Source: Candidatus Aenigmatarchaeota archaeon
Lineage (GTDB): Archaea; Aenigmatarchaeota; Aenigmatarchaeia; CG10238-14; SCSR01
DNA length: 64,000 nt
Reading direction: 5' to 3'
Assembly (NCBI GenBank): GCA_038998335.1
Contig: JAVZHQ010000001.1
Span: 384,001-448,000 of the forward strand
Both the position numbers and the translations under genes were made by a program. Below, in pieces: positions 19,369 through 23,441 of this stretch. The notes below the pieces were generated by a model that made no database searches, was not told the origin of the DNA, and saw nothing but the letters and a program-made list of their open reading frames with translations. Position 1 is the stretch's first letter, and each line of letters begins with the position of its first letter.

Positions 19369-20304
19369 ATGGAAGTAAAAGAATTTGAACCAAAAAAGCA
19401 AAGTGTGAATGAGCTAACCAAACAAATGAGAAGAACAGCCTTTAACGCAAGAAGGCTTGGGGAAGCAGTAGAAATTATAGAAGAAATGATAAGAGATAAA
19501 AATTGTGTTAAATTTTTAGGTTTGGCTGGAGCCCTAATTCCTGCTGGAATGAGTAAGTGTATAGTAGAAATGATAAAAAATAAATGGGTTGATATAATTG
19601 TTTCTACAGGAGCTAACATTACTCATGAGCTTGCAAATTGTTTTGGAGAGAAATATTATCAATGCGAACCGGAAAAAGTTAACGATTTAGAACTGAGAGA
19701 AAAAGGTTTGGATAGAATTTACGATGTTTATGCAAGCTCAACCACAATGGCAATAATGGAAAAAAATTTTCAAGAAATTTTGAGCAAAATCAAAGAAGGG
19801 GAATACGCTACTTTTGAACTTCTCGAGGAAATAGGAAAAAGGATTGAAAAGAAAGAATCGATCTTAAGAGTAGCGTTTGAAAATGAGGTTAAAATTATTG
19901 TTCCAGGAATTGTTGATTCAATCCTAGGAATTCAAGTTTGGATGTTTTCTCAAGACCATAAATTAAAGATAAATGAAATGAAAGATTTGGACTTTTTGAT
20001 AAACTTAAACTTTGACTTAAAAAAGGAAGGAAAAAATACTGGTGTAATAATTTTAGGTGGAGGTGTACCGAAAAACTTTATTTTACAATCAGTTTTGTTA
20101 GCTGACAAACCTCACAAGTATGTTGTTCAAATAACAACTGAAGTTCCAGAGTATGGTGGTTTATCGGGAGCAACTTTAGAAGAAGCTTTAAGCTGGGGTA
20201 AAGTTGACAAAAGCTCAAAAACCTGCACAGTTTATTGCGATTCGACCATAGCTTTACCCATAATAGTTTCTTCTTTAAAAGAGAGACTAACTTTCAAAAC
20301 CTAA
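19369..20304 (+). CDS. dys: Deoxyhypusine synthase
   Basis: STGANITH, GGGVPKN, GGLSGATLEEALSWGK; GGTGA RBS before ATG 19369. Confidence 0.93.
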   Translation: MEVKEFEPKKQSVNELTKQMRRTAFNARRLGEAVEIIEEMIRDKNCVKFLGLAGALIPAGMSKCIVEMIKNKWVDIIVSTGANITHELANCFGEKYYQCEPEKVNDLELREKGLDRIYDVYASSTTMAIMEKNFQEILSKIKEGEYATFELLEEIGKRIEKKESILRVAFENEVKIIVPGIVDSILGIQVWMFSQDHKLKINEMKDLDFLINLNFDLKKEGKNTGVIILGGGVPKNFILQSVLLADKPHKYVVQITTEVPEYGGLSGATLEEALSWGKVDKSSKTCTVYCDSTIALPIIVSSLKERLTFKT

Positions 20305-20940
20305 CTCTTTCAGTTTCTTTAAAATTCTATCAACAACAACTTCAGGGGGGATATCAACTTTGCTACACCTTACATTTCCAAAAGGTTTTTTCTTTTTATA
20401 ATATTTTATCAAAGGTTTTGACTGTTTTTGATAAACTCTAAACCTTTCTTTAATAACTTCTGGTTTATCGTCTTCTCTTTGAATTAGCTTGCTTCCGCAC
20501 TTATCGCATATTTCATCGTTTTTTGGCTTAAGAAAAATTTTATGGTAAATCGCGTTGCAATTTGGACAGATTAACCTTCCAGAAAGTCTTGCAATTATAA
20601 CACTTTGAGGGACAACCAAATTTATAATTACGTCAGGAGAAGAGATTTTTTCCAAAGCTTCTGCTTGCGGAATTGTTCTCGGATACCCATCTAAGATATA
20701 ACCTTTTGAGCAATCTGGTTTTGAAAGTCTTTCTTTAACTATTTCTATAACAATATCGTCAGGAACTAGCTCGCCTTTACCTTGATATTCAGCTATTTTT
20801 TTAGCTAGTTCGCTTCCTGACTTAGCAATTTCTCTTAGAATATCACCAGTGTTAATTTTTGGTATTCCTAACTTGCTTTCAATAATTGAAGCATAAGTTC
20901 CTTTTCCTGAGCCTGGGGGACCAAAAATTATTAGCTTCAT
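20287..20940 (-). CDS. adk: Adenylate kinase (long LID, Zn-binding)
   Basis: GPPGSGKGT, LDGYPRT, CxxC...CxxC LID, QREDD. Confidence 0.93.
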   Translation of the reverse strand: MKLIIFGPPGSGKGTYASIIESKLGIPKINTGDILREIAKSGSELAKKIAEYQGKGELVPDDIVIEIVKERLSKPDCSKGYILDGYPRTIPQAEALEKISSPDVIINLVVPQSVIIARLSGRLICPNCNAIYHKIFLKPKNDEICDKCGSKLIQREDDKPEVIKERFRVYQKQSKPLIKYYKKKKPFGNVRCSKVDIPPEVVVDRILKKLKELGFES

Positions 20941-21023
20941 TTTCTTGCCTCAATTTTATTAAATTAGGGAAAACAAAGCTATAAAGTTTATTAAAAAAAT
21001 ATAAGAGAAATAATTAATTAGAA

Positions 21024-21132
21024 GCTGGGATAGTTCAGCGGTTAGAACGCGGCGCTCATAAGCTTTATGAGCTTTGAAAAAATGATGAAAGATGAAACGC
21101 CGAAGTCCCGGGTTCAAATCCCGGTCCCAGCA
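21024..21132 (+). tRNA. tRNA-Met(CAT), elongator type, with 36-nt anticodon-loop intron
   Basis: Acceptor GCTGGGA/TCCCAGC, anticodon stem CGGCG/CGCCG, CTCATAA loop after removing 36 nt (21061-21096, or 21062-21097 by BHB geometry). Confidence 0.9.
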
Positions 21133-21173
21133 TTTTCTTAAAGAATTTATCCTTTCACTTTTTGTTTAATATT

Positions 21174-21422
21174 ATGATTGTACCAACAAAAATTTTGAAG
21201 AAAGAAGATGATTATGAAATAGCCTTGATGGTTTTCCCTGTTTTTGAAAAAGAAAAAACTTTCTACGAGTTTCATCTTGTCAAATCATCTAGCTCCAAAA
21301 CGGAAACACTTAAAGTAAATGAATACAAACCACCACTTAAACTAGAAGAAATAGCAAATGATTTTAACGTTAAACCAGAAGACGTAAAAGAACTTTTAGA
21401 AAAGCTGGGTTACAAGGCTTAA
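21174..21422 (+). CDS. Hypothetical protein
   Basis: Open frame with ATG start, host-like composition. Confidence 0.6.
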   Translation: MIVPTKILKKEDDYEIALMVFPVFEKEKTFYEFHLVKSSSSKTETLKVNEYKPPLKLEEIANDFNVKPEDVKELLEKLGYKA

Positions 21423-21476
21423 CTTTAGAAAAGTATTAAATTTATTTTTGCTTAAATATTATCAAAAGGTGAAAAA

Positions 21477-21704
21477 ATGGTTGAATTGACAGAAGAGGAA
21501 AAAAAAGTTGTAGAAGCGATGAAAATGCTAAAAGCAACTTCCGAATCTCAGCTTAAAACAGTAGACCATATAGCAAAAGCTGCATCAATGCCAAAAAGTA
21601 AAGTTGCTTCAATAATCCAAATGCTAATGAACAAAAAAGTTGTAAAAAGAATTGCAAGGGAAAAAGCAGCAGGATATTATCTTGATCCTTCAGCCCAAGT
21701 TTGA
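21477..21704 (+). CDS. Small winged-helix DNA-binding protein
   Basis: HIAKAASMPKSKVASIIQMLMNKKVVKR..GYYL wHTH pattern; GGTGA RBS. Confidence 0.7.
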   Translation: MVELTEEEKKVVEAMKMLKATSESQLKTVDHIAKAASMPKSKVASIIQMLMNKKVVKRIAREKAAGYYLDPSAQV

Positions 21705-21779
21705 CATAACCTTACCTTTGAATTAATGGGATAAAAAGAGGATTTATTTATTCCTAATTCTAATTTTTATTTAAACCAT

Positions 21780-21854
21780 GGCCCGATTAGCGTAGCCTGG
21801 TTAGCGCGCAGGCCTGTGGAGCCTGAAGGCCGGGTTCAAATCCCGGGTCGGGCC
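21780..21854 (+). tRNA. tRNA-His(GTG) with encoded G-1
   Basis: G-1:C73, acceptor GCCCGAT/GTCGGGC, anticodon stem CAGGC/GCCTG around CTGTGGA. Confidence 0.93.
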
Positions 21855-21998
21855 CAAATTTCTCATCCTTCAAACCCACAGAAGAATTTTTGGATATTTT
21901 GGTAAACTTAAGTAGTTTCAGGATTAAACTTCATCTTTCACAAGAAATTTTAAAAATTTAAAAATTTGATTTAAATTAACAGTTAAAAGTGGAAAAAT

Positions 21999-22736
21999 AT
22001 GAATGAAATGGAGATTTTTGTACTTGGTTCTGGTAATGCTTATTCAGAAAAACGTAACCCAACAAGCTTTGTAATTAATTCTTCTGGAAAATATACACTA
22101 GTTGAATGTCCTAGTATGCTGAGAAAAATTTTAAGAGAATTTAGAGAAAGGTCTGGCAAAAAATTAGGAATCGAGGAAATAAACGATGTTATAGTAACCC
22201 ATTTACATGGCGATCATTCTAACGGTTTAGAAGCTTTTGGATTTTGGAAACATTTTGTAGAAAAGAAAAAGCCAAACATTTATTCTATAAAAGAAGTTTT
22301 TGAAGATTTATGGGAGAATAAACTTAAAGCCAGTATGCAAAGAATTTATACAGAAAATTTTTCTTTAGAAAAAGTTTCTTTAGATTTTTACTTCCAAACA
22401 AAAATTTTAGAATTTGGAAAGATAAATGAAGTAAACAATTTAAAAGTGGAGATTAAAAGAACAAAACATGTTGTACCCTGTTTTGCGATTAAAGTTAATG
22501 GTATACTAGGCTACAGCTCAGATACTTCTTTTGACCCTGAATTAATAGAATTTTTGTCGCCATGTAGAATGATTATTCATGAAGTTGGACCTGGAATTCA
22601 TACAGACTATAAAGAACTAATTCGATTGCCAAAGCATATAAAAGAGAAAATTTATCTTGCTCATTTGGACGATGACTTTAATACCATAAGATCTGAGTTA
22701 AAAATTTTGGAAGAAGGCTTGGTTTACAGAGTATAA
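21999..22736 (+). CDS. MBL-fold hydrolase (RNase Z / phosphodiesterase-like)
   Basis: LGSG, THLHGDH, YSSDT, HE, LAH. Confidence 0.8.
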   Translation: MNEMEIFVLGSGNAYSEKRNPTSFVINSSGKYTLVECPSMLRKILREFRERSGKKLGIEEINDVIVTHLHGDHSNGLEAFGFWKHFVEKKKPNIYSIKEVFEDLWENKLKASMQRIYTENFSLEKVSLDFYFQTKILEFGKINEVNNLKVEIKRTKHVVPCFAIKVNGILGYSSDTSFDPELIEFLSPCRMIIHEVGPGIHTDYKELIRLPKHIKEKIYLAHLDDDFNTIRSELKILEEGLVYRV

Positions 22737-22802
22737 AATCTTTTTTCTTATATCTATACAGAAAAAAATAAAGTGTTAAATACTCAAATTAATTATGAGA
22801 AG

Positions 22803-23441
22803 ATGGGAGTAAGAGAAAAATTAACATCCTTCTGGAAAAGCTTAGAAGGCGCCTCTCTTCTTAGAAAATATGTTAACGGAGAAATAGGAATTAAGGAAGT
22901 AGTAACAGTAGAAAAAGGTGGAATAAAATTCTTTGGTGTTATACCAGTTTTTCCTATGGAAGCAAAGGACTGGGGAAGACTTATAGAAGAACTTATAAAA
23001 ATTCATGGTCCTGGTGTAGTTGCAACGATGAGAATGAGTTATAAAAAGAATGGTTACGAAGAAACAAAAGAACTTAAAAAAATTTTACCAAAAGAAAAAA
23101 TAATTAAACTTCTTGAATTTTGGATAGACTTAGGGCATATAGAAAAAATTCTCGAGATTAAAATGGGAAAAAATAACGAGCTGCGAGAAGTTTCTTTTGA
23201 GAATATTTTAAATGAAATAAAGGAAGATGATAATAAAGTTGTAGTAAAGGTAAAAGGTTCTCTTTCTTGCAAAGCAGTAAAAGAAGTTATGAAAAAAACT
23301 CGGTATCCAGTTTGTATCCATGAACCAGGTTATATAGCTGGCTTTCTAGAAGCTTTAGTAGAAGGAAAATGGGAAGTTGAAGAAACTAAATGTGAAGGAA
23401 TGGGAGATAAGTTTTGTGAGTGGGTTTTCTTTAAAAAATAA
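22803..23441 (+). CDS. V4R-domain protein
   Basis: PVC...GYIAGFLE...VEETKCEGMGDKFCEW. Confidence 0.8.
   Translation: MGVREKLTSFWKSLEGASLLRKYVNGEIGIKEVVTVEKGGIKFFGVIPVFPMEAKDWGRLIEELIKIHGPGVVATMRMSYKKNGYEETKELKKILPKEKIIKLLEFWIDLGHIEKILEIKMGKNNELREVSFENILNEIKEDDNKVVVKVKGSLSCKAVKEVMKKTRYPVCIHEPGYIAGFLEALVEGKWEVEETKCEGMGDKFCEWVFFKK

Follow-up and report, generated by a model that had tools for sequence, protein, structure and literature searches.

A 36-nt tRNA-Met intron of an Aenigmatarchaeota archaeon as a candidate single-K-loop guide for methylation of its own wobble ribose

Can a 36-nt tRNA intron direct 2'-O-methylation of the wobble base of the very transcript in which it resides? The question is raised by a tRNA-Met gene in a 64,000-nt stretch of contig JAVZHQ010000001.1 from a Candidatus Aenigmatarchaeota archaeon (hereafter the window, to which plain coordinates refer), for which an initial annotation proposed that the intron guides methylation of C34 of its own tRNA through an internal D'/C' pair. 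That annotation also held that Cm34 of tRNA-Met is normally placed by a separate sRNA and that tRNA-Trp is served by its intron, and the accessible text of a 2008 survey (PMC2584109) agrees, describing the tRNA-Met Cm34 guide as "always exonic" (not in an intron) and the tRNA-Trp guide as always intronic. A 2024 review (PMC11408192), in its accessible sections, cites only tRNA-Trp for intron-borne guides. Based on the evidence presented here, we estimate a probability of about 0.7 that the tRNA-Met intron would act as a natural one-K-loop (monopartite, or "half-mer") box C'/D' guide, in cis, on N34 of the unspliced precursor.

The tRNA-Met gene and the module in its intron

The gene matches the Rfam tRNA model with 59.9 bits and a 38-base insertion within the anticodon loop (Table 1). 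It was missed by ARAGORN at default settings, and the intron-mode call of the same program, Ser(cga), is a mis-call that was overruled by the Rfam match and by manual reading. The anticodon loop reads CTCATAA, and the 36-nt intron can be placed at 21061-21096 or at 21062-21097; as an A stands on each side, both placements give an identical mature tRNA. The gene has G1-C72, is without the three G-C pairs that the initiator carries at the foot of its anticodon stem, and is unlike the two tRNA-Ile genes of the genome (GAU and UAU). By these features it is an elongator tRNA-Met, neither an initiator nor a tRNA-Ile2. TiaS, which any CAU tRNA-Ile would need, was not found in the 90%-complete assembly (four of four archaeal control genomes were positive), and no second CAU tRNA, initiator tRNA-Met included, was found in the same assembly. 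AUA is apparently decoded by the UAU anticodon and not by an agmatidine-modified CAU. The tRNA-Ile(UAU) gene, which lies outside the window at G000:C2:71223-71316 (+), holds a 19-nt intron of its own. Within the window, an intron-less tRNA-His(GUG) gene is found at 21781-21855 (+), about 650 bases downstream on the same strand. DNA sequencing runs matching positions 20000-23000 are all labelled as hot springs metagenome, and two of them contain at least half of the sampled words; one of the two may have given rise to the assembly. The same look-up returned no RNA run for this DNA.

Table 1. Coordinates of the tRNA-Met gene and of the elements of the candidate guide module in the window
Feature	Position	Strand	Basis
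tRNA-Met(CAU) gene, elongator type, intron included	21024..21132	+	Rfam tRNA, G1-C72, anticodon stem CGGCG/CGCCG
Acceptor stem	21024-21030 with 21125-21131	+	read from sequence
Anticodon stem	21050-21054 with 21098-21102	+	read from sequence
Target strand, nt 31-38, GCTCATAA; wobble C34 at 21057, anticodon (CAT) at 21057-21059	21054..21061	+	read from sequence
Hairpin loop, 3 nt, first intron bases, linking target and guide	21062..21064	+	sequence, fold
Guide (antisense element), 8 nt, TTATGAGC	21065..21072	+	perfect reverse complement of nt 31-38
Spacer T, single base between guide and D'	21073	+	read from sequence
D'-like box UUGA (TTGA)	21074..21077	+	read from sequence
A-rich K-loop linker	21078..21081	+	read from sequence
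C' box AUGAUGA (ATGATGA)	21082..21088	+	matches consensus RUGAUGA
Intron 3' part, AAGATGAAA; ATGA at 21092-21095	21089..21097	+	ATGA able to pair with nt 33-36
3' exon, nt 39-73	21098..21132	+	sequence and Rfam match

The strings and coordinates that had been proposed for the intron are all correct by direct reading of the sequence. The element described as antisense to nt 31-38 is its perfect reverse complement, and the two boxes, TTGA and ATGATGA, stand where they had been placed, with the pattern GA...GAUGA conserved in relatives. The C34 target assigned by the D'+5 rule also stands: G21069, the partner of C34, is the fifth base upstream of TTGA, and this register is kept in 115 of 117 module sequences. 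A run of five A residues (21078-21082) lies between the boxes, and its last A doubles as the first base of C'. In a K-loop of this type, tandem G-A pairs are followed by a U-U pair and then by pairing of D' position 1 with C' position 6. The guide hairpin is part of the minimum-energy fold of the tRNA-Met precursor, and its 8-bp duplex obeys the D/D'+5 target rule of canonical box C/D sRNAs. The duplex is shorter than the 10-12 bp that are usual for box C/D guides. The C' box matches the C box consensus RUGAUGA, as that consensus is given in the accessible part of PMC5539422.

As in the intron guides of tRNA-Trp, the guide sits in an intron of the anticodon loop, and its pairing with the precursor that carries it spans the exon-intron junction. 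The second guide of Trp-type introns, directed at position 39, is not present in the tRNA-Met intron, which addresses position 34 only. At the sequence level, an internal D' and C' lie a few bases apart, and neither a terminal C/D pair nor a second C-like/D-like pair was found in or around the intron; a relaxed genome scan for the full C/D box set did not report the locus. The intron thus has one guide 5' of one K-loop with no second motif, an arrangement that fits a monopartite layout. The feature is guide-like and, having no terminal C/D pair, falls outside the canonical bipartite family; it is best filed as a putative natural monopartite variant.

Covariation and distribution of the module

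The same module is found in the introns of tRNA-Trp(CCA), tRNA-Leu with anticodon CAA, tRNA-Leu with anticodon UAA and tRNA-Gln(UUG) of this genome, the first three having been seen in the list of the genome's tRNA hits and the last having been added by a covariance model. Each paralogous antisense fits the loop of its own tRNA, with the fifth base upstream of the D'-like box opposite position 34. The genome has two paralogous tRNA-Gln genes (UUG and CUG; G000:C1:556997-557113 (-) and C2:98148-98244 (-)) with two introns each. One intron of each gene lies inside the anticodon stem after nt 29, and the module occurs only in the second intron of the UUG gene.

A comparison of tRNA-Met introns over related genomes, proposed in the initial annotation as a check, was carried out by BLAST against 40 relatives and the genome itself. 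Intron-containing tRNA-Met was recovered from 25 of these 41 genomes, and the guide, the D'-like box and the C' string were present in all 25 introns. Pairing from nt 31 extends over at least six contiguous base pairs in 24 of them and over 4 bp in the remaining one (G036), while one ortholog (L010, in G031) has the C' variant CATGA. No tRNA-Met match was obtained by BLAST from the other 16 genomes, most of which are incomplete. Matches to the intron's 3' half led to further host tRNAs in relatives, namely Glu(UUC), Lys(UUU), Gln(UUG) and Arg(UCU).

Covariation was scored on a MAFFT alignment, unfitted to any structure, of 39 sequences comprising 24 tRNA-Met and 15 other tRNAs; the latter were picked by the K-loop and the 3' part rather than by the antisense, and the finder afterwards demanded at least six pairs. 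Positions 34-36 pair through two to five pair types: position 34 in 39/39 sequences (C-G 30, U-A 9), position 35 in 38/39 through three types, and position 36 in 37/37 through five. The covariation score of 0.570 compares with 0.155 in shuffles, none of 500 shuffles attains it, and sliding the partners by 1-3 columns lowers the score to 0.137 or less. Read from this alignment, the antisense is re-tuned to the anticodon of its own tRNA across eight tRNA species. Where the base after nt 37 varies, the 5' end of the guide covaries with it (column pair 12/24; A-U 9, G-C 5, U-A 2, C-G 1). This column pair joins the guide to the first intron base, and the unspliced precursor is therefore needed for that pairing.

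A covariance model (R1) was built from the 39-sequence alignment. In the order (Aenigmatarchaeota, DPANN), R1 matched each of the 118 genomes, with 483 matches altogether; five near-complete members of the family had 6-7 matches each. When the phylum was sampled, 110 of 151 genomes gave a match, made up of 50/51 from the order, 59/99 that belong to the class but to other orders, and the genome itself. Outside the phylum, matches were found in 0/5 assorted archaeal genomes and in two samples, each taken from the phylum to which a titled record belongs: 8/121 genomes for a Nanoarchaeota record and 3/81 for a Micrarchaeota record. By this census the module is rare and weaker outside Aenigmatarchaeota. 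At four loci in other DPANN phyla (L175, L176, L184 and L185), introns of tRNA-Met or tRNA-Trp hold a guide and K-loop plus an additional box. This is either a D box that follows a second spacer of 12 nt or a C box that precedes the guide, and such introns may be transitional between full intron guides and those with a single K-loop.

Anatomy was compared over 119 distinct module sequences, of which 104 were handled by the parser; the 15 others mostly break its stem-closure rule, and the module in them is visible by eye. The parsed anticodons are CAU (42), CCA (22), CAA (12), UUC (12), UUG (6), UUU (5), UAA (4) and UCU (1). No other anticodon occurs among the 104, and all eight are C34 or U34 readers of purine-ending split-box codons. 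The GA of D' is invariant (TTGA 76, ATGA 13, CTGA 7, TCGA 6, TAGA 1, CGGA 1), GATGA is found within C' in 92 of the 104, and the pattern GA...GAUGA is near-invariant whereas both loops vary. D' and the GAU of C' are separated by 0-9 nt, mostly 5-6, and the hairpin loop measures 2-17 nt across relatives, with 2-6 nt in 71/104. The spacer is a single base in 115 of 117 module sequences and is T in 77 of the 104 parsed ones. When the boxes were ignored in locating the hairpin, the GA of D', counting onward from the partner of nt 32, fell at +5,+6, again in 115/117.

The sequences behind these anatomy counts, and behind the register and splice counts below, were gathered with R1, which was itself built from the module, and their uniformity is therefore partly selected for. 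The modules are also evidently related to one another as copies, and part of their fixed spacing may be inherited. Several features count against reading the module as a guide: a terminal C/D pair is missing, the duplex is short (8 bp in the window, and 5-7 bp from nt 32 in most relatives), and D' is degenerate, being UUGA in the window and CUGA in only 7/104. In family f4, an A at D' position 1 goes with a U at C' position 6 in three sequences; this candidate covariation is not convincing and was dropped, as further members of f4 fit either of two registers.

Splicing and the C/D machinery of the genome

The initial annotation suggested a splice site at 38/39 rather than 37/38. In the splice motif of the tRNA-Met precursor, a central helix of 4 bp can form between nt 33-36 and 21092-21095, with a 3-nt bulge on its 5' side; the 3' side has two bases opposite C32 and not a clean 3-nt bulge. 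As read from these pairings, the bulge-helix-bulge is relaxed. Its conformer is predicted at -7.5 kcal/mol, as against -9.6 to -11.8 kcal/mol for the guide fold, and since both structures draw on a common set of loop bases, the hairpin and the motif are alternative folds.

Two registers of the central helix, a canonical one (nt 32-35 with the intron 3' end) and a shifted one (nt 33-36), were scored in 106 sequences. The canonical register was better in 51, the two tied in 37, and the shifted register was better in 18, all of them tRNA-Met. The tRNA-Met of the window forms 1/4 pairs in the canonical register versus 4/4 in the shifted one. In the 14 tRNA-Met introns with 4/4 shifted pairs, an A follows nt 37 in every case, and C or U stands just before nt 39 in 11. 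Conversely, the 61 sequences with a base other than A after nt 37 all have an A before nt 39. An A is present on at least one side in 106/106 sequences and absent from both sides in none, which indicates that A38 can be supplied by either exon and that two splice registers exist. Together, the shifted-register scores and the A38 pattern support a 38/39 site in the tRNA-Met of the window. The intron is probably removed between nt 38 and 39, and the earlier placement gains comparative support with the qualification that the motif is relaxed.

The proteins that a box C/D guide would require are encoded in the genome. The genes for nop5 and fibrillarin are adjacent (Pfam Nop, 228 bits; Fibrillarin, 283 bits), and genes for L7Ae (Pfam L7Ae, 109 bits) and for the splicing endonuclease EndA were also identified. 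The fibrillarin shares 81-92% identity with proteins from five MAGs titled Aenigmatarchaeota, in agreement with the lineage. A strict regular-expression scan of the genome yielded no complete C/D sRNAs. A relaxed scan, crude and blind to half-mers aimed at rRNA, yielded five candidates, one or two of them credible. Judging by these scans, both of them crude, classical stand-alone box C/D sRNAs seem scarce here, although nop5, fibrillarin and L7Ae are kept. The only convincing full set in the relaxed scan was in tRNA-Ser(CGA), outside the window at G000:C1:504696-504833 (-), whose 53-nt intron has the complete C, D', C', D set and two guides.

Loss of the trans-acting tRNA-Met guide had been named as a further point to check. 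A search for a stand-alone guide (an antisense hexamer beside a D-like box) gave 16 loose matches and 6 CTGA matches, and inspection of the latter showed no C box near any of them in the context shown; the pattern search thus produced no stand-alone tRNA-Met guide in a 90%-complete assembly in which absence is not proven.

A related arrangement was observed outside the window in tRNA-Cys(GCA), at G000:C1:371541-371645 (+), whose intron shows this D'-like box together with the linker and GATGA. An antisense of 7 nt pairs there with the two final bases of the intron and with nt 38-42, placing C39 at the fifth position. The tRNA-Cys module is kept in 7 genomes of 4 genera (L186-L192), with a G-U pair changed to G-C in L191. 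The tRNA-Cys intron is a possible cis guide for Cm39, comparable to Um39 of tRNA-Trp.

Proposed mechanism, alternatives and known guides

From the anatomy, its conservation and covariation and the protein genes present, we infer that the K-loop folds, that the proteins bind, that methylation takes place and does so in cis, and that events run in the following order. In the unspliced transcript, the first half of the intron would fold back onto nt 31-38, and the adjoining UUGA...AUGAUGA would form a K-loop that binds L7Ae. Nop5 and fibrillarin would then dock and 2'-O-methylate C34, which lies opposite the fifth guide position upstream of D'. The guide hairpin would subsequently be replaced by the bulge-helix-bulge fold, which uses the 3' end of the intron, and the splicing endonuclease would excise the intron, probably at 38/39. 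Across the lineage, the module is predicted to serve the wobble base of tRNA-Met, Trp, Leu(CAA), Leu(UAA), Gln(UUG), Glu(UUC), Lys(UUU) and Arg(UCU).

Methylation is the best reading of the module for several reasons: the one-base spacer puts the wobble base at the fifth position, in keeping with the box D+5 rule; the hosts are the kind of tRNAs that are wobble-ribose-methylated elsewhere; and nop5-fibrillarin, L7Ae and EndA genes are all encoded. According to the accessible text of PMC7994747, Pyrococcus has four box C/D sRNAs for N34 of tRNA-Leu(CAA), Leu(UAA), Met and Trp, and these four targets are exactly four of the eight hosts of the module. U34 of tRNA-Gln(UUG) is a predicted target in Sulfolobus (PMC7668247, in the part available), and a table in PMC4033218 lists Trp, Leu(UAA) and Leu(CAA) as modified at position 34 by Trm7-Trm734 and TrmL. 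These enzymes, eukaryotic and bacterial respectively, resemble the proposed system in their overlapping substrates and differ from it in working without an RNA guide. Taken together, every sequence-level prediction of the proposed cis D'/C' guide for Nm34 was found to hold and to be conserved.

Several other explanations of the module were considered. If the resemblance were fortuitous, an AT-rich intron would merely hold GA-rich strings and a hairpin by luck, and lone K-loop-like strings are indeed common, appearing in 7,812 of 200,000 shuffles of the tRNA-Met intron and 578 times across the 1.0-Mb genome. The full module, defined as at least six Watson-Crick pairs from nt 32, one spacer base, NNGA, 2-9 nt and GATGA, was by contrast rebuilt in only 2 of the 200,000 shuffles. 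Genome-wide, a hairpin of at least 7 bp ends one base before a K-loop-like string in only 5 of the 578 cases; four of the five are tRNA introns, and their hairpins start at nt 31. The module is moreover kept in 118/118 genomes of the order with compensatory changes. The shuffles, the genome scan, the census and the covariation together rule out a fortuitous module, to which we attach a negligible probability. A different explanation, which we consider unlikely, is that the module is functional and yet is not a methylation guide, with an L7Ae-binding K-loop standing beside a hairpin that masks the anticodon. It would then serve folding, quality control or splice timing, for example by blocking translation or the endonuclease. 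Conservation and covariation prove only selection on the hairpin and the GA motifs, the mutually exclusive hairpin and splice folds lie within a few kcal/mol of each other in the manner of a switch, and L7Ae binds many K-turn RNAs outside C/D RNPs (accessible text of PMC5539422), all of which would suit such a role. It does not predict, however, an exact one-base spacer with N34 at the fifth position (115/117), nor does it predict the restriction to tRNAs that are wobble-ribose-methylated elsewhere.

A methylation guide could also act in trans, with the excised intron (linear or circular) or another precursor pairing with a second tRNA-Met molecule, and we find this slightly harder still to credit than a non-guide role. 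In vitro data favour trans action for tRNA-Trp, including the Haloferax intron (PMC2584109 and PMC11408192, as far as their accessible text goes), and the guide pairs almost solely with exon bases 31-38, so that the spliced tRNA would be a target as well. Duplexes of 6-8 bp would nevertheless be weak in trans, whereas in cis a loop of 2-6 nt (71/104) makes the hairpin the minimum-energy fold, and the covariation between the guide 5' end and the first intron base (column pair 12/24) requires an unspliced precursor.

Among the closest known systems is the tRNA-Trp intron guide (Pyrococcus sR50; Haloferax volcanii), which in the sources available is likewise a guide inside an anticodon-loop intron and is complementary to the anticodon loop of its own tRNA; L7Ae, Nop5 and fibrillarin make Cm34 ahead of splicing, and the fold of the guide is in competition with the splice motif. 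The Trp-type guide differs in its length of 60 to over 100 nt, its full C, D', C', D set and its guides for both positions 34 and 39, whereas the tRNA-Met intron has 36 nt, one guide and one D'/C' pair; the lineage's own tRNA-Trp also has the short form. Pyrococcus sR49 and haloarchaeal sR-tMet, as described in the same partial sources, address the same target base of the same tRNA and act on the intron-containing precursor, but they are trans-acting RNAs from separate genes with full box sets. In Nanoarchaeum equitans, a stable C/D-like RNA was reported in the 66-nt intron of elongator tRNA-Met (Randau 2012, PMC3491384). This case shares with the present one a DPANN host and box C/D-like elements in a tRNA-Met intron; the N. 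equitans RNA is longer and has a box C variant and a box D, and its target is not named in the accessible text of PMC3491384, whereas the intron in the window has a single K-loop and an explicit candidate self-target, C34.

Engineered half-mer guides (Wang, Yang and Ye 2022, PMC9670817; Hardin and Batey 2006, PMC1635284; both as far as accessible) share the layout of the module, the guide lying 5' of one L7Ae-binding motif, a K-turn or K-loop. Section 7 of PMC9670817 states that half-mer C/D RNAs work in vitro, and constructs of the MMG5 type resemble the module in targeting the fifth guide position and in using substrates of 8-11 bp, according to the same section. A single-site complex described in the accessible part of PMC1635284, which also cites earlier failures, was active but non-specific in site choice, and this counts against the guide reading. 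The engineered half-mers are synthetic, act in trans and were combined with Sulfolobus proteins, whereas the intron in the window is natural, is joined to its substrate by a short loop and is known from sequence. A full-text literature search that covered few subscription journals and no supplements returned no description of single-K-loop self-targeting tRNA introns or of a spread over eight tRNAs. Intron guides in tRNA-Trp are established, a C/D-like RNA from a tRNA-Met intron has been reported, and the single-K-loop self-targeting form appears to be new.

A wider proposal, to which we give somewhat less than even odds, is that the C/D machinery of Aenigmatarchaeota employs, in vivo, natural single-K-loop guides to which the substrates are covalently attached, that up to eight tRNA species keep introns as wobble-ribose guides, and that few or no classical stand-alone C/D sRNAs are left in these reduced genomes. 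If this is true, a single-K-loop guide, so far working only as an engineered construct, would be used in nature, and the minimal guide architecture from which bipartite C/D RNAs have been proposed to evolve would have a living representative. The wobble modification would be set, and forced to occur before splicing, by one compact RNA module. With a precursor of about 110 nt and three proteins, the system would be very small and easily reconstituted, and it could show how box C/D enzymes measure target position and whether they act in cis. For the lineage itself, tRNA introns would be given a clear job across a whole group of archaea, which would be a concrete selective reason for their persistence, and the module may explain the accurate decoding of purine-ending split-box codons in genome-reduced DPANN archaea.
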